DNA from: Turneriella sp.
GTDB lineage: Bacteria; Spirochaetota; Leptospiria; Turneriellales; Turneriellaceae
Reading direction: 5' to 3'
Length of the DNA stretch: 64,000 bases
Assembly (NCBI GenBank): GCA_965279515.1
Contig: CBDIID010000003.1
Location: 3,424,001-3,488,000, forward strand
Shown: piece by piece, positions 45,764 through 52,635 of the stretch
Position numbering within the stretch: position 1 is the first letter of the stretch
Layout: each line of letters opens with the position of its first letter
Made by a program: the position numbers and the translations under genes
The notes under the pieces: model-generated
Databases searched by the model: none
Seen by the model: the letters and a program-made list of their open reading frames with translations, nothing else
Told to the model about the DNA's origin: nothing

Positions 45764-46366
45764 TTATTTTGCCCATGCCAAACCTTCATCGGCATACTTG
45801 TTATCGGGAGACATCAGCTTCACACGTTCGAAATTTTGCCGCGCGGGGGATTTTTTCCCCTGTTTCAGCTGTGCCCAACCCAAGCCCATGAGTACCGTCG
45901 CGTCAGAAGGGAAGTCAGTCGCGAGATCGGCATACTGTTTTTCCGAACGCGGGAAATCCCCCGCGAGATAATATGCATAGGCGAGCTTGATGCGCGCCGT
46001 GTAGTTCTTGGGATCGCTGCGCAGCACTGCCTGCGCGGCGAGTGCTGCTTCATTATATTTACCCAGCGCGATGAGCGGTAAGAGCTTGCCTAACCGCGGC
46101 TCGAGCGATTCTGGTTTGAGAAGCAGCGCGTTCTGGTAGAGCTCGAGCGAGCGTGTGAAATGCCCCGCGAGGTAGGCGAGGTAGCCGGCGCGCAACTGGT
46201 AAAAATATTCTTTGGGATTTTCGGCAATGAGTTTTTCACCCGCGGCAAATGCCTCATTATATTTGCCATAATATTCGAGTGTGTATGTACTCTGCAGCAC
46301 TGAGGGGTCTATCCCCCTGATGGCGGCAGGCGCGAGTGCGAAGATCATTGTCAGAATTTTTTTCAA
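45764..46366 (-). CDS. exported TPR protein
   Basis: TPR pattern; probable TTG start at 46366 overlapping the upstream TGA, with GGGAG RBS. Confidence 0.85.
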   Translation of the reverse strand: MKKILTMIFALAPAAIRGIDPSVLQSTYTLEYYGKYNEAFAAGEKLIAENPKEYFYQLRAGYLAYLAGHFTRSLELYQNALLLKPESLEPRLGKLLPLIALGKYNEAALAAQAVLRSDPKNYTARIKLAYAYYLAGDFPRSEKQYADLATDFPSDATVLMGLGWAQLKQGKKSPARQNFERVKLMSPDNKYADEGLAWAK

Positions 46367-47718
46367 AATAAACTCCCTGTTGCTGCGAATGAGATTGTAC
46401 CCGATGTCGGTGTGTCGCCGTTTAAAGCCTTCCATTGGCCATAGGTGTAAGCACCCGAAATTTCAAAATAAGGGGATGGCTTCCAGGCGAGACGGCCATA
46501 ACCCTGCACGGTCATCTCATCGAGGCTGTAGGTGAGAATGGCGCCGTTGTCGAAGAGCGGCGTGTAGAGGCTGCCGTAGAGCCCGCCTGCGGACAGGCAT
46601 AGCGTGCCGAGACAATAATGCAGTGCGGCGCCACCAGCCGCGTAGAAATTCGTCACCTGCGAGAAACGGATAGCCTGCACGGTGCCCGAAATTCCCAGCG
46701 AGAGGGATTTCGTCAGCGGAAACATATATTGCGGTGTCAGCGCCGCTCCTTTGTGACTCGAGAAGATCAGCACATCGCCGCCGATCGTGAACCGCGAGGT
46801 AATGTGGTTTTTATACGCGGCGCTGAGTGTCACCGCGTTGTTGAGGAGAGAATAATTCGAAGACAGATAGTGACCCGTGAAAGAGATCTGTGAGAGATCA
46901 GAGAATAAAACTGCCGATGAGAGTTTTGCTTCGCGCGTCTCATAACCCGTCGTCGACGCCGGGTTGCCGATATTGCTCTGTGCATAACCTGCACCGACGC
47001 TCAGGCCCGAATTGAAATTCCAGAGGCCGAATACGCCAGCGTCATAACCCGACGATTTCATGCGCGATCCGGAGAATGCAATATTCTGGTAATAAGGTAT
47101 CAGCTGGCCCGCGGGCGCATAACTCAGCGAACGCGCGCCGTACTGGTGCATGAGATCGGCATAGATATTTTCGGCGCTCGATGAATCACCGTTCTCTTTA
47201 TAAGCGCTCGCCATGCGCAGCTTTACCGGGTAGTTTTGCGGGTCGATGGCCAGTGCGGCGCGGCCCCATTGGATGCTCTCGCCGTATTTTTCGGCGCCTA
47301 AGAGCGCCCACTGCGCGCCGGCTTTAGAATCGAGGTTCTGCGAAATCGCGTCAGCTTTGAGATAATCTTCAGCCGCCGCGGCATATTCGCCGAGCATCAG
47401 GTTGCAATACGCTTTGTTGTTGAGCGCGGTGATGTACTGCGGTTCGGTTTCGAGGAGTTTTTGCCAGATATTGAGGGCCGCAAGATAGTTGCCGGATTGC
47501 ATTTCGGCGACAGCAGTGCTGACGGCGGTGGTGGCGGTGTTTGCGTGAAGAGTTTGAACCCAAAAAAATAAGAATAACGTGATTACTATCGCCCCACCCC
47601 GGCCTACGGCCACCCCTCCCCAATTCCAAGCTCCCTTCCCCCAGACTTGGGGAAGGCGCTTGCGGCAGGCGCAAGCCTGCGGGGGAAGGGGGCGTCCTAC
47701 CCCGCCGAAAGCACCCAT
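46363..47718 (-). CDS. TPR plus C-terminal beta-barrel-like protein; start uncertain because a repeat sits in the 5' end (alternative GTG at 47613)
   Basis: Signal-like IVITLFLFFWVQTLHA, TPRs, aromatic amphipathic strands, terminal Phe. Confidence 0.8.
   Translation of the reverse strand: MGAFGGVGRPLPPQACACRKRLPQVWGKGAWNWGGVAVGRGGAIVITLFLFFWVQTLHANTATTAVSTAVAEMQSGNYLAALNIWQKLLETEPQYITALNNKAYCNLMLGEYAAAAEDYLKADAISQNLDSKAGAQWALLGAEKYGESIQWGRAALAIDPQNYPVKLRMASAYKENGDSSSAENIYADLMHQYGARSLSYAPAGQLIPYYQNIAFSGSRMKSSGYDAGVFGLWNFNSGLSVGAGYAQSNIGNPASTTGYETREAKLSSAVLFSDLSQISFTGHYLSSNYSLLNNAVTLSAAYKNHITSRFTIGGDVLIFSSHKGAALTPQYMFPLTKSLSLGISGTVQAIRFSQVTNFYAAGGAALHYCLGTLCLSAGGLYGSLYTPLFDNGAILTYSLDEMTVQGYGRLAWKPSPYFEISGAYTYGQWKALNGDTPTSGTISFAATGSLF
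47592..47692. repeat. palindromic repeat unit at the junction of the transporter and TPR genes
   Basis: CCCCACCCCGGCCTACGGCCACCCCTCCCCA, then CCTTCCCCCAGACTTGGGGAAGG and GCAGGC-GCAA-GCCTGC. Confidence 0.85.
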
Positions 47719-49889
47719 TTGGCTCCATCCCTTTGCGCCGTTATTTTTCCAGGAAAGCTGCCCGAAAGCTCGGCCGAGGTTGTAAGTACCAAGCGTGCGC
47801 CGTTCGTAACAGTCGAAACGATCGGCGCGGTTGCATGCGATTGTGGGACCGCATTCCAGCTGAGCGAGACGCGATCGGTGAAGGGCAGCAAAATATCTTT
47901 CAGGATGCGGAACGGCAGCGCGGTGAAATATTTGTAAGAGATGCGCTCGCCATAGGCGAATTTTGCTGCCGAGAACGGGACCCGGTAGTAGGCGTTAAAA
48001 AGTAAAAAGAGCGCGCTGTGGCGGCTGCCGGTGTAGTCGAGCGCGGCGAACCAGTCGTTCGACGACGAGTACAAAAGCCGGTCGCCGCTTTGGTTTTCAA
48101 TGAAACGCGTGCCGAGAAAATCGATTTTGACTTCCCATTCTTCGCTCACCGTTTTGAAGTCGGGTGTCTCCAGGTTCACACGCATGACCTGCCCTGGCGC
48201 GAGCGTGAAGAAGGTCTTGAGGTTGAAGTCAGGTGAGAGATTCGCGACGACTTCGTCTTCAGCTGGTATGCCATTGAAGTGGATTTTCGAAACGCCGTTA
48301 TGCAGCACATACTGTGTGAGCGGCACCGGCACCGTGGCGCTGCCGATTTCAGGCGTCGCCTGAAAGTGCAGGTGCAGGTGGGGTTCGGCCGAGCGGCCCG
48401 AGTTGCCGGCGAGACCGAGTTTCGTGCCCGCGATGACATAGTCGCCTTCTTTGACCAGAACCGAATTTTTCTTCAGATGACAGACGAGAGAGAACAGCGC
48501 GGGACCATGCTGGATTAGAACGAGATTACCCCAGTTCTCGCGCAGATTCATCTCGCCGGGTAGATTGTCGTCGAGGTGCGCCACAACCTTGCGCACGGTT
48601 CCCGCCGCGACGGCCAAAACCGGCAGACCGAAAGTGAAATAGTCTTCTAAAGAGGGCGATTGACTTTTGCGCAGCGAGCCATCCTCACTGAGTGCCATAA
48701 AATCGAGACTCGCATACCACTCACCCTGGTGCGTGTATTTGCCGTGGTAACCCTGCGAGACCTTCCATTTGCCCCAGAACGGCAGGCGGATGTCGAGACC
48801 CAATTCGCCGAAGCGGCCCTGACGCGATTTGAAGAAGTCAAGGTTGTGCTCGGGTGAACCCGGCAGAAAATCGACGGGCCGCAGGTTCTTGTTATAAAGA
48901 AGCTTGATGCAATACAAAAAGAGCAGTGTCGTCATGGCAAACGGTAGCGTGAGCACAGGCATGTTAAAACTGACGAAAAAGATCTTGATGAATGACGCAA
49001 CCGTGGCGGTGGTCAGCGTCGCAAGGATGGCCAACACAAACGCGGCCGGACCCGGCACCAAAAAGATGCCACCCAGCGCAATCGAAGTCAGAATATAGTT
49101 AAAGGCGACGAGACCACCCGTCATATCGTTCATATCGCCTTTAAGGATCAGGTGAAATAACACACCTGTGAAAAAACCCATGAGCGACAGAAGAAATCCT
49201 AATCTGCTGGAGATGAGAAGGGCGAGCATGATGACCAGCCCCGCCCACGGGCTCGACTGGAAAAAAATCGCCCCGAGCGATTTCAGGTAGTAGAGCGCGT
49301 AGCGCGGCAGTTCGGGAAAAGATGCATCGATACTGAGGACGGTTTGTTTTTCGAGCGCAGTGCCGTCGTAGTTGTAGAAGGCGAGGTAACTGATCGAGCT
49401 CACGAGCACAAAGGGAATTGAAAGCGCGGGAATATTGAAAAAATAACCGAAGATGTGGTCGAGCGCGATGTTGACGAAGATCAGTAGCACGACGGCTACG
49501 AAGAGAATAAAGAGCGCCGTTGGCGAGAAGGCGTAATAGTAGCTGAACGACAGGCCGAGCAAGAGTGCATTGAAGCCGATGAGGCCCTTGCGGATTTTAT
49601 CCTCATGCACGCCGATGACGCGCGCCAGCAGGTTGGCGACGAGGATGGCAAAGACACCGAAGACGCCGGCCTTTAAGTTAAAGAACGTGGCTGCGAGGGC
49701 GATGACGCCGATTGCCTTGCGATCGCTGAAGAGAATGTTCGAGTAGGAGCGGAGTAAGGCTTCGACGACCCCACCCCCCAACCCCCTCCCCACAAATGTG
49801 GAGAGGGGGGGCCTCAGAGCCCCTCTCCACGTCAGTGGGGAGGGGTGGCCGTAGGCCGGGGTGGGGTTAGGCGGCGCTTGGAGTGACAT
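47697..49889 (-). CDS. urea-transporter-family domain fused to an M23 peptidase domain and a C-terminal domain
   Basis: GLIGFNALLLG, AFNYILTSIALGG, LTLPF; then THQGEWYASLDF, WGNLVLIQH, GNSGRSAEPHLHLH. Confidence 0.88.
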   Translation of the reverse strand: MSLQAPPNPTPAYGHPSPLTWRGALRPPLSTFVGRGLGGGVVEALLRSYSNILFSDRKAIGVIALAATFFNLKAGVFGVFAILVANLLARVIGVHEDKIRKGLIGFNALLLGLSFSYYYAFSPTALFILFVAVVLLIFVNIALDHIFGYFFNIPALSIPFVLVSSISYLAFYNYDGTALEKQTVLSIDASFPELPRYALYYLKSLGAIFFQSSPWAGLVIMLALLISSRLGFLLSLMGFFTGVLFHLILKGDMNDMTGGLVAFNYILTSIALGGIFLVPGPAAFVLAILATLTTATVASFIKIFFVSFNMPVLTLPFAMTTLLFLYCIKLLYNKNLRPVDFLPGSPEHNLDFFKSRQGRFGELGLDIRLPFWGKWKVSQGYHGKYTHQGEWYASLDFMALSEDGSLRKSQSPSLEDYFTFGLPVLAVAAGTVRKVVAHLDDNLPGEMNLRENWGNLVLIQHGPALFSLVCHLKKNSVLVKEGDYVIAGTKLGLAGNSGRSAEPHLHLHFQATPEIGSATVPVPLTQYVLHNGVSKIHFNGIPAEDEVVANLSPDFNLKTFFTLAPGQVMRVNLETPDFKTVSEEWEVKIDFLGTRFIENQSGDRLLYSSSNDWFAALDYTGSRHSALFLLFNAYYRVPFSAAKFAYGERISYKYFTALPFRILKDILLPFTDRVSLSWNAVPQSHATAPIVSTVTNGARLVLTTSAELSGSFPGKITAQRDGAKWVLSAG
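49769..49866. repeat. double-hairpin palindromic repeat read in frame at the transporter N-terminus
   Basis: CCCCCTCCCCACA-AA-TGTGGAGAGGGGG and CCCCTCTCCAC-GTCA-GTGGGGAGGGG; 49836-49866 is the exact reverse complement of 47592-47622. Confidence 0.88.
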
Positions 49890-49895
49890 GAACGC

Positions 49896-51263
49896 TTAGC
49901 TTTCCAACGCAACCATATCTTCCATCGTCTCGCGGCGCTTGATGAGTTTGACTTCGCCTTTGGCTGACACCATCACAACCGCGGGTTTCATTTCGATAAA
50001 CTGCATCGACTGCGTCACGTTGTACGCGCCGACCGGGTGTATCACCACCTGCTCGCCGCGGTGCATGTTCGGCAGCAGGCATTTTTCGCGCACGACGTCG
50101 ATGTTCATGCAGAGCGGCCCGTAGAGAATGACATCTTCCCAGCTGCCCGAATAGTATTGCGTCGGCGAAACTTTCAGGTCATACCATGTGGACGTATAAA
50201 GAAGGTTTACACCCGCATCGAGAATGAGCGCGCGCTGGCCGCTTGCCAGCATTTTCGAACCGACGACCGACGAGACAAGAAAACCCGCCTCGTCGACCAA
50301 TGCCCGACCAGTTTCCAGAAAAAGCTGCGGTGGAGAATCCTCGCCGGGAAAATTTTCATAGAGCGTATCGCAAATCGCTTCGGCATATGCTTCAAAGCTG
50401 GGAATCCACGAGCTGTCGACCTTGTAGTGCGCCTTGAGTTTATTGCGCGAGGCAAAGCCGCCACCGAGATCGATGTAACGCAAAGGCTGGCCGAGTTCTT
50501 CGCGCAGCTGTTTGTAGAATTTGCTGACCTTCTCCGCGGCTTTTTTGTACGGCGCGGTTTCATACATGAAGGTACCGATATGCGAGTGCACGCCGATGAT
50601 CTTCAGTTTGCCGTCAACAGTAGCCATGCGGGCCGCTTCGAGTGCATGACCGCTTTCGAGATTAAAGCCGAAACGGCTCCATTGCGGCACCATGCCGGTG
50701 TCGAGGTTCAGGCGCAGCGCAATTTCAACGGGGCGGCCGAGTTCGTCGGATATCCTCTTGAGGTCGCGTATCTCGTCGAGGTGGTCGGCATGGATCTTGG
50801 CGCCTTCGGAAACGGCTTTTTTCAGAATTTCATAATTCTTATAAGGGCCGTTGAAGATAATCTTGTCGCCGGGAATGCCATTGTGCCGTGCCTTGAGGTA
50901 CTCAAAGCCCGAAACGACTTCGGCCCAGCTGCCTTCGCTGTGGAAGACATTGCAGATCGCATCGAGGTAGTTTGTCTTATACGACCACGCGGCCTGGAAC
51001 GAGGGGTAGCGCGAAGAGAACGCCTGGTTGAGTTCGCGCACCTTGCGGCGCAGCGTGTTCTCCGAAAAGACGAAGAGCGGCGAACCGAACTCTTTCACCA
51101 GATCGTCGATCGCCACACCGTCGATGTTCATCACAGGTTCAGGTACCGAGTAGCCGCCGAACTTGTTTGCGGCGCCCATATACTGTTTGCGGATGATTGG
51201 CCGGGAGTAGGGTTTGCGCACTGAGGTGCTTCCGGCTTGTTCTGTTGTATCTGTTTTTTTCAT
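49896..51263 (-). CDS. PLP-dependent decarboxylase, Orn/DAP/Arg (LysA-like) family
   Basis: WSYKTN (PLP Lys), FNGPYK, HSHIGT, DLGGGF, ETGRALV, GPLCMNID, GAYN. Confidence 0.92.
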   Translation of the reverse strand: MKKTDTTEQAGSTSVRKPYSRPIIRKQYMGAANKFGGYSVPEPVMNIDGVAIDDLVKEFGSPLFVFSENTLRRKVRELNQAFSSRYPSFQAAWSYKTNYLDAICNVFHSEGSWAEVVSGFEYLKARHNGIPGDKIIFNGPYKNYEILKKAVSEGAKIHADHLDEIRDLKRISDELGRPVEIALRLNLDTGMVPQWSRFGFNLESGHALEAARMATVDGKLKIIGVHSHIGTFMYETAPYKKAAEKVSKFYKQLREELGQPLRYIDLGGGFASRNKLKAHYKVDSSWIPSFEAYAEAICDTLYENFPGEDSPPQLFLETGRALVDEAGFLVSSVVGSKMLASGQRALILDAGVNLLYTSTWYDLKVSPTQYYSGSWEDVILYGPLCMNIDVVREKCLLPNMHRGEQVVIHPVGAYNVTQSMQFIEMKPAVVMVSAKGEVKLIKRRETMEDMVALES

Positions 51264-52381
51264 GCGACTGCCTTATGTGTCCCCACCCCCTGCCCCGCAC
51301 GCGGGGGAGGCTGGGAGGGGGAGCGGGGTGGCGCGTATGAAATCATCCCAACCGTCGACAGCGATTCAATGGTCGCCATCGGCACAATCTCATCGCGCGC
51401 GTGGCGGATGAATACCATGCCGACTTCGTATTCTGTGCGGGGCTCAACGCTCTCACCCAACGCGAGGGCGACATGCATTGCTGGCAGGTTCATGCCCGCG
51501 CGCGTCGCGAGGTAGGTCCATGCGGGAAAACGCGGATTCATTTCGATGAGAAAGACTTCGTCGGTCTTGTTCTCGACGATGAACTCGAGTTCGAAACCGC
51601 CGTCCCAGTTTAAAAACTGGATGAGCTTGCGCGTCATCTCGAGAATTTTTTCGTTTTTGATCGTGACCCCCGACCAGGCCTTGCCTTTGTCGGTGACGAA
51701 GAGCTTTTTCATCGCCACGGCGCCATAGAGTTTGCCGCGTTTTGCGAGGCCGGCGACGTTCATCTCTTCGCCGGAAATCATTTTCTGCGCGATGGCCGGG
51801 ACTCCCCACTGCGAAGCGAGCTTGTAAAACCAGCCGACAGCTTCTTCGGGGGAATACGCGGCATACGCCTCATAATACTGCCCCTTGACCAACAGGGGAA
51901 ATCCCAGTTTATCGAAAGATTCGCGCAGCGCCGCCACGTCGGAAATCCGCACCGTCTCGGGCGTCTTGACAATGTCGGTCGGAATTTTCTCTGCAAGCGT
52001 CGGTTTGTCGCGGAGTGCCAGGCTCTCTTTGAGGGGCAAGAGGAGTTTGATACCGAGATAGCGCAGCTCACCTTCGATTTTGATATAATTTTCGAGCTCA
52101 GAATCGAGCGTCGGCAGAATAACATCGATGCGTTCTTTTTTGTGGATCTCGGCGATACGGCTCAGCAGCGCGTCTGGCCCGGTGTTCGGGTAGGGCGTTA
52201 GGTAACAGGCCGAGACAAGATCATTCATGTAGTTACCCGCATCAAGCACGCCGTAGGTGATGCCGATATGGCGGTGGCGCGCCCCGGATTCTTTGAGCGA
52301 GCGTAAGACCGCGAGGCCAGGAGCCGGGCTATCGGCTGCATTCAGGCCCGTCACACAGACGGTGGTGCGGCGGCTTACCAT
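51260..52381 (-). CDS. ATP-grasp carboxylate-amine ligase
   Basis: LGFPLLVKG, FELEF, LIEMNPRFPAW. Confidence 0.9.
   Translation of the reverse strand: MVSRRTTVCVTGLNAADSPAPGLAVLRSLKESGARHRHIGITYGVLDAGNYMNDLVSACYLTPYPNTGPDALLSRIAEIHKKERIDVILPTLDSELENYIKIEGELRYLGIKLLLPLKESLALRDKPTLAEKIPTDIVKTPETVRISDVAALRESFDKLGFPLLVKGQYYEAYAAYSPEEAVGWFYKLASQWGVPAIAQKMISGEEMNVAGLAKRGKLYGAVAMKKLFVTDKGKAWSGVTIKNEKILEMTRKLIQFLNWDGGFELEFIVENKTDEVFLIEMNPRFPAWTYLATRAGMNLPAMHVALALGESVEPRTEYEVGMVFIRHARDEIVPMATIESLSTVGMISYAPPRSPSQPPPRAGQGVGTHKAVA
51280..51332. repeat. palindromic repeat unit translated in frame at the ATP-grasp C-terminus
   Basis: CCCCACCCCCTGCCCCGCACGCGGGGGAGGCTGGGAGGGGGAG; closely matches the 12404 unit. 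Confidence 0.82.
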
Positions 52382-52635
52382 CTTGTGCCTGCCGCGATTA
52401 ATCCCGCTTCCCTGAATTGCAGCAAAGCGTTGCTGACATCTTCGAGGGCTTGTGGTCCCGCGACTTCAAATTCGGCTGCCAGCGATTCGGCGATCTGCTG
52501 TTGTTGCAAGCCGTTCTTCAGCGATTTTAGAATGAAGATCGCCGATTCGTTGAGTGTGAAGGTATTCCCCGTCGCCGGGTCGAACAGAAACCCGGTCTCG
52601 GAAAGCGCGAGGTTTTTGATCTTGTTGAGCTCCAT
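52375..52635 (-). CDS. PqqD-family / RiPP recognition element protein
   Basis: 86 aa; 'GFLFDPATGNTFTLNESAIFI...IAESLAAEFEV...ALEDVSNALLQFREAGLI'. Confidence 0.88.
   Translation of the reverse strand: MELNKIKNLALSETGFLFDPATGNTFTLNESAIFILKSLKNGLQQQQIAESLAAEFEVAGPQALEDVSNALLQFREAGLIAAGTRW

Follow-up and report, generated by a model that had tools for sequence, protein, structure and literature searches.

Stand-alone RREs serve as signposts for undiscovered peptide natural products, the rule being that each has a short precursor. What, then, is bound by a stand-alone RRE for which no short precursor of leader and core, as in lasso or linear polyphosphorylated peptide (LPP) clusters, was found? 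The operon that raises this question lies entirely on the minus strand of the window, that is, the whole 64,000-nucleotide stretch of Turneriella DNA that was analysed. Its genes run in the order pqqD, ATP-grasp ligase, decarboxylase, urea-transporter/M23 fusion, TPR protein and second TPR protein, with junctions that overlap or measure 7 bases. The first gene (52375..52635) encodes an 86-aa, lasso-B1-like PqqD-family RRE (PF05402; TIGR04353 over its cut-off), and the second (51260..52381), which overlaps both of its neighbours, an ATP-grasp ligase of the CPS/biotin-carboxylase-like group, with PF15632 (found in 54 of 54 members of the ligase family) and 2pn1 as best fold match (TM 0.72). The third (49896..51263) encodes a 455-aa, FslC/LysA/BtrK-like fold-III PLP decarboxylase (PF02784 and PF00278). 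It is followed, here as in most loci, by a urea-transporter-like membrane domain fused to an M23 peptidase (47697..49889; PF03253 and PF01551), then by a TPR protein with a beta-rich C-terminal half (46363..47718), whose true start is probably inside the ORF, and finally by a second TPR protein (45764..46435) that recurs across loci; both match TPR families. A scan of 26 ORFs in and near the operon revealed no B2-type, signal-peptidase-type, LppS, cyclase or kinase gene.

Judged by its sequence, the operon PqqD protein is a discrete lasso-B1-type RRE. It is the only PqqD match in the genome (PF05402 at 2e-13; NF033530 is not reached, with 45 of 70 bits), and its family profile best matches TbiB1 (1.2e-13) and TfuB1 (1.2e-11), with PQQ PqqD far behind at 0.007. 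Across distinct members of the RRE family Asn29 is found in 61 of 61, Asp66 in 57 of 61 and Phe70 in 54 of 61, the window's own RRE having Ala where Phe70 is usual; its Asn29 and Asp66 codons are at 52549-52551 and 52438-52440. These three positions align with N33, D70 and F74 of LppB, for which we took chain 9x8z_B, since ten residues named in the accessible part of PMC13381572 match it at an offset of 18. According to that part of the paper, LppB D70 bonds the hydroxyl of the leader Tyr, N33 fixes the Pro kink, mutation of either weakens YxxP binding, and both residues are widespread in RREs of the lasso and PQQ kinds. The first hairpin of the RRE, residues 10-23, contains further positions (A10, S12, G15, F16, F18, P20 and G23) that are conserved like the leader pocket, and it is a candidate surface for the ligase.

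The answer that we propose lies at the N-terminus of the decarboxylase. The first-pass annotation had noticed an extension ahead of the LysA fold and had read YSRPII within it as the ligand of the PqqD protein. The extension is real, and the translation of 49896-51263 begins MKKTDTTEQAGSTSVRKPYSRPIIRKQYMGAANKFGG..., exactly as had been quoted; the conserved, leader-like tail within it is R16-G36, RKPYSRPIIRKQYMGAANKFG (51156..51218). Residues 1-15 (51219..51263) are not conserved and do not belong to the feature. The first ATG, at 51263, lies in an overlap with the ligase stop codon; a GTG at Val15 offers an alternative start, most homologues start at this position, and the decarboxylase may have its real start there. 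The interval first assigned, 51160..51263, ends inside Phe35, and the peptide quoted for it extends to 51153.

The operon is common, with at least 7,977 decarboxylase protein clusters (E up to 1e-80), and among the best 120 of these homologues Pro22 is found in 120, Tyr19 in 116 (Trp in the other four), a hydrophobic residue at position 24 in 120 and Lys34 in 120. Mean column identity over 78 sequences is 0.09 for residues 1-15, 0.67 for 16-24, 0.62 for 25-36, 0.29 for 37-46 and 0.67 for the core; the tail is thus conserved on a par with the enzyme fold, and consists of two conserved blocks on a variable linker. The first block is Y19-S-R-P22-I-I24 (51192..51209), an RRE-binding-type motif of the form [Y/W]xxPx(hydrophobic); the accessible part of PMC13381572 defines the RRE leader motif as [Y/W]xxPx[L/V/I/F/A]. 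The second block, G30xxN33K34F35G36 (51156..51176; Lys34 codon at 51162-51164), had been missed before. Against four close relatives the 21 tail codons display 7-11 silent codon changes and 1-2 residue changes. The spacing from Tyr19 to Lys34 is 15 in 79 of the 79 tails (of 83) in which both motifs are readable, a Lys occupies the Lys34 position in 81 of 82 tails, and the spacing from Lys34 to the core varies from 10 to 16. Strict invariance of Lys34 was considered and ruled out: the residue is Pro in one four-gene locus (L043), and of 26 divergent representatives with the motif, 15 have Lys at +15, including some of the most distant, and 11 do not.

Residues 16-36 lie outside the enzyme fold. 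The fold-III core begins at about residue 44-47, and 49 of 51 solved-structure matches start at residue 43 or later, the remaining two at 27 and 33. In the AlphaFold2 monomer model pLDDT is 46-63 for residues 1-40 and 96-98 for residues 41-80, and a profile of the tail had no match among solved chains at E values up to 10.

The tail and the RRE occur together. We assembled 91 loci (4 + 7, own locus included, + 80; a few are near-duplicates), of which 90 carry the motif, 85 by pattern and 5 by eye, the remaining one being cut by a contig end. pqqD was found in 68 loci, which are all of those with enough upstream DNA; in the remaining 23 the sequence runs out no more than 1,349 bases upstream. 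Across the class (190 genomes) the decarboxylase is encoded in 30 genomes, 29 of which have a matching RRE, and the 160 genomes that lack the decarboxylase have no strong RRE match and a single weak one (7e-10). The thirtieth genome has no PqqD match, and its contig ends inside the ligase gene, about 1 kb upstream of the decarboxylase, and it was therefore not counted as an RRE loss. The operon is patchily distributed: within the genus 4 of 13 other genomes encode it, and within the class 30 of 190 do. The closest relatives of the decarboxylase (75-89%) are from Turneriella, Leptospiraceae and Spirochaetes, and the names of homologues span spirochaetes, Bacteroidota, Thermodesulfobacteria and Proteobacteria.

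Relatives without a tail provide the converse comparison. A search with the core only gave 150 representatives, 135 with an intact core start, and these comprise 26 with the motif, 84 with a short N-terminus and 25 with a long N-terminus devoid of the motif; the motif-bearing representatives cluster on the tree of core-only matches, and YxxP outlasts the rest of the tail among divergent relatives. Four ligase-decarboxylase pairs (L130/L144, L133, L136 and L137) have neither a tail nor a nearby RRE, and they are distant (116-185 bits vs 630-660). Among the relatives whose gene context was read, the comparison of motif with and without pqqD, which the first-pass annotation had suggested, came out in favor of the pairing, with one exception. 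This is L131, a viral contig encoding pqqD, the ligase and a close decarboxylase (459 bits) in intact-looking frames, where the decarboxylase has neither YxxP nor NKFG and the RRE has Ser at position 29. We considered the Asn29-to-Ser replacement in L131 as a change matching the loss of the motif and dropped it, since the RRE of another locus, L112, has the same Ser with an intact motif. Searches of viral contigs for gene context found only L131, L133 and ten ligase loci, a search of the phylum added a single distant locus, and a search of plasmid and phage collections for the context of the nearer tail-less relatives had no match.

A matched change in the two partners points the same way. After exclusion of one fragmentary RRE and one unanchored tail, 66 loci could be paired (63 of them distinct), and 61 have Tyr in the tail with Asp66 in the RRE, whereas the other five have Phe in the tail with Tyr, Tyr, Tyr, Glu or Thr at position 66. 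Loss of the Tyr hydroxyl from the tail thus appears to accompany loss of the RRE residue predicted, from the LppB alignment, to bind it. The five Phe-tail loci form one clade (support 92/95) that accounts for 6.9% of tree length, and a Fisher p of 1e-7 overstates the association because the clade represents a single event. Outside this clade 70 decarboxylase columns are invariant, and not one of them is changed in all five members; the RREs of the clade keep Gly15, Gly23 and Asn29. Another 22 loci of the class, L112 among them, were read by eye, some of them in genomes that had contributed to the count before; Tyr was seen in 21 and Trp in one, each time together with Asp66.

Complex prediction with the RRE and residues 12-51, both supplied as alignments, scored 0.56 against 0.00 for the best control, which is weak support. 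The mark was passed by 116 of 157 solved pairs and 2 of 215 mismatched pairs, passes at 0.60 or under comprising 18 of the 157 solved pairs and both mismatches. At least 90% of contacts are shared between runs, with a partner pLDDT of at least 56, although RRE-YxxP complexes have already been solved and the score may reflect likeness to them. Taken with the conservation of the motif, its co-occurrence with pqqD, the pocket residues and the Phe-tail clade, the proposal that YSRPII is the ligand of the operon PqqD protein is supported, and it is very probable that the RRE binds the decarboxylase tail.

In an alternative reading, the tail would have a structural or dimer-contact role in this clade of enzymes, its likeness to a lasso leader would be coincidental, and the RRE would bind some other ligand such as a very short, distantly encoded peptide. 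The bare motif [YW]xxPx[LIVFA] is present within the first 35 residues of 70 of 3,902 long, mechanically defined ORFs of the genome, and with 1.8% of N-termini carrying one, a lone occurrence is weak evidence and conservation has to decide; L131, moreover, has an RRE without the motif. The paired loss of the Tyr hydroxyl and Asp66, the persistence of YxxP beyond the rest of the tail in divergent relatives and the 0.00 of the complex-prediction controls nevertheless all argue against coincidence, which we consider unlikely.

Searches for a free precursor bear on the same alternative. The tail profile, run against 137,531 reading frames of the genome, recovered only the tail itself (39.6 bits; next 10.8), and 22 proteins of 20-72 aa that match the profile, considered as precursors, all proved to be N-terminal fragments of the decarboxylase. 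The 94 short motif-bearing ORFs present in 37 of 50 loci of at least 8 kb include no family recurring near the operon, and for 41 operons the ORFs of 8-60 aa that lie within or beside them likewise show no recurring family, which counts against a separate peptide ligand. The genome search used the decarboxylase tail as its profile and would therefore miss an unrelated leader, and an unrelated, distant and very short leader may exist elsewhere. The YxxP precursors of the fosfazinomycin cluster, of 21-22 residues, were overlooked by automated search, according to the accessible part of PMC13622209. The earlier suggestion that the tail explains the missing precursor agrees with these results: no free precursor appeared in the genome frames, short database proteins, loci or operons searched, and the conserved leader-like tail is most likely the missing ligand of the orphan RRE.

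Our preferred reading, to which we assign a probability of roughly 0.6, is that the RRE-held tail bridges the decarboxylase to the ATP-grasp ligase. The lasso B1-B2 and LppB-LppS pairs serve as the model: in known cases a stand-alone RRE holds the leader by its motif and offers the leader's end to another protein. Here the RRE would grip the lasso-type leader (Y19xxP22xI24) on the decarboxylase N-terminus, and the leader so held would give a further protein a surface to dock on. That protein is most likely the ligase, to which the second block with Lys34 would be presented. The ligase is the likeliest third partner because its gene overlaps pqqD and because the natural ligase-decarboxylase fusion P0186 has retained the motif within the linker; one member of the P0186 cluster has the fusion split. 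The presented residue of LppA, T-1, is 15 after the Tyr, the same place as Lys34. The ligase and the decarboxylase would then work as one complex that needs no separate precursor peptide.

The identity of the decarboxylase suggests what such a complex might make. It carries K96 (YKTN) and C385 (GPLCMNID), and it was ruled out as the housekeeping LysA, with 235.7 of the 297.9 bits of TIGR01048 and a residue after the catalytic Cys that is not acidic (C385-M386). The genome encodes two other fold-III decarboxylases, neither of which has the motif. The best solved match by both sequence and fold is FslC (7kh2; 30%, TM 0.80), the N-citrylornithine decarboxylase of Francisella rhizoferrin biosynthesis, and BtrK is also among the sequence and fold matches. 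FslC shares the Cys-Met, in contrast to the Cys-Glu of the M. jannaschii DAP decarboxylase, and Cys-Met in place of Cys-Glu suits an acylated substrate; the present enzyme is, however, far under the FslC cut-off (228 of 500 bits), and the FslC alignment starts past the tail. The partner of FslC is an NIS synthetase.

The pairing of an ATP-grasp ligase with a fold-III PLP decarboxylase in one cluster is known from butirosin (BtrI/BtrJ/BtrK) and closthioamide (CtaE/CtaD/CtaF). In those pathways, as described in the accessible text of PMC7183216, the substrate of the decarboxylase is an amino acid linked through its side chain and tethered to a carrier, and CtaD and CtaF work in repeated rounds. 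By analogy with BtrJ/BtrK and CtaD/CtaF, the ligase of the present operon would couple the side chain of an amino acid to an amine, and the decarboxylase would strip the conjugate of its alpha-carboxyl; the M23 domain might release the product and the urea-channel domain pass it, both guesses from gene order. The ligase is likened to BtrJ and CtaD by its decarboxylase pairing only, its own best matches being CPS and biotin-carboxylase-like, and its likeness to CPS and biotin carboxylase domains means that it may perform carboxylation chemistry. The butirosin and closthioamide systems differ in having a phosphopantetheine carrier protein and no RRE, whereas pattern searches found no ACP-like ORF here, neither in 27 loci of at least 12 kb nor among the window ORFs scanned.

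Because the Btr and Cta pairs use carrier-bound amino acids and no carrier-like ORF was found by pattern, Lys34 is a candidate for a built-in carrier. That Lys34 itself is loaded is a tentative idea, and if the tail does bridge the two enzymes, we are evenly divided between Lys34 as the loaded amine and NKFG as a docking site only. Against loading count the Pro of L043, the absence of Lys at +15 in 11 of the 26 divergent representatives, and the existence of tail-less pairs. Equally speculative is the fuller version, in which the tail would be a reusable, encoded carrier arm replacing the acyl carrier protein, with Lys34, held out by the RRE, loaded by the ligase with an amino acid via its side chain and this cargo decarboxylated by the enzyme that bears the arm. 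Repeated rounds would perhaps build a short polyamide as in closthioamide, and the channel-fused M23 domain would cut the product off for export. If this were true, templated amide synthesis would gain a third form, in which a RiPP leader on an enzyme replaces phosphopantetheine.

The binding evidence fits equally well with a regulatory role, in which the RRE-bound tail is a switch: NKFG would fold back on the decarboxylase dimer, Lys34 would mimic substrate or product, and the RRE would lift or set the brake. Lys34 resembles the diamine ligands of the decarboxylase family, and the tail is unplaced in the monomer model of an enzyme whose active sites form in the dimer. Nevertheless, a fixed Tyr-Lys spacing (79/79) combined with a variable Lys-core spacing (10 to 16) is easier to reconcile with a unit that the RRE presents than with a lid, and the gene that pqqD overlaps encodes the ligase rather than the decarboxylase; we regard the switch as improbable. 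Less probable still is that the tail is a fused precursor or pro-peptide handed by the RRE to the M23 peptidase for a cut near NKFG that would release a peptide or activate the enzyme, since, although presenting a leader to a peptidase is the best-known job of stand-alone RREs, the operon includes an M23 domain, and taking Tyr19 as -17 would put the cut between Phe35 and Gly36, the operon has no B2-type, signal-peptidase-type or cyclase gene, only a variable linker and then the enzyme lie past Gly36, leaving no core peptide, and M23 enzymes are known chiefly as cutters of wall peptides and Gly-Gly.

The bridging tail would differ from each of the systems that it resembles. It has the same leader motif as the substrates of the lasso RREs TbiB1 (5v1u), TfuB1/FusB1 (6jx3) and PbaB1 and of LppB, the stand-alone RRE is closest to these by profile, and a second conserved block follows about 15 residues on; but the leader here is the N-terminus of a 455-aa enzyme rather than of a short precursor, and the operon has no B2 peptidase, cyclase, kinase or core peptide. 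In borosins precursor and enzyme form one chain with the core at the C-terminus and no RRE, whereas here the leader is N-terminal and an RRE is in the operon. The accessible part of PMC13622209 describes how the YxxP peptide FzmZ and RREs build a small non-peptide product of fosfazinomycin biosynthesis that is later cut off; FzmZ is a separate 22-mer, in contrast to a leader that sits on a second enzyme of its pathway. Our literature search found no description of the operon or of an RRE that binds an enzyme N-terminus, and tables of RRE atlases in subscription papers may list the family. An enzyme N-terminus as the apparent ligand of an RRE is a concrete answer to what orphan PqqD proteins bind, and it suggests checking the ends of neighbouring enzymes in other clusters that lack a precursor. 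If both the binding and the handover to the ligase are true, parts of an antibiotic pathway have been put to a new use in this widespread bacterial gene set.

Several minor observations concern the surroundings of these genes. In the window, the last 25 residues of the ligase and the first 40 of the channel ORF (51260-51340 and 49770-49889) are Pro/Gly-rich, GC-rich and absent in close relatives, and are possibly inserted repeats read in frame. The L131 trio (L131:3444-5922; IMGVR_UViG_3300047160_011268) lies without the channel/M23 gene on a phage-like contig that encodes a family A DNA polymerase. Another viral contig (L134:5710-6455) ends in the 3' part of a ligase gene of this family followed by a decarboxylase tail (YIAPNI...GNMNKY), and the start of its ligase frame is unrelated, as though the gene harbored a prophage. 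The phage loci L133:2528-7113, L136:3639-9124 and L137:5434-8243 combine a PylC-like ATP-grasp protein with a TET-associated glycosyltransferase and with a fold-III decarboxylase that has no tail; two of the three loci also encode a UDP-galactopyranose mutase, and this gene set is a candidate DNA-modification pathway. The tail-less decarboxylase and PylC-like ATP-grasp protein of L144:6922-9134 (G275) lie inside a polysaccharide locus that also encodes LicD, IspD and a DegT aminotransferase. Relatives of the decarboxylase are also fused to other domains, namely the ligase, a urea-transporter domain, a sulfotransferase and an N-acyl amino acid synthase FeeM domain (P0186, P0200, P0297 and P0312). 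In one clade of related decarboxylases (P0243, P0277, P0300, P0309 and P0313) the tail is replaced by a hydrophobic, membrane-anchor-like N-terminal extension of 80-100 residues.
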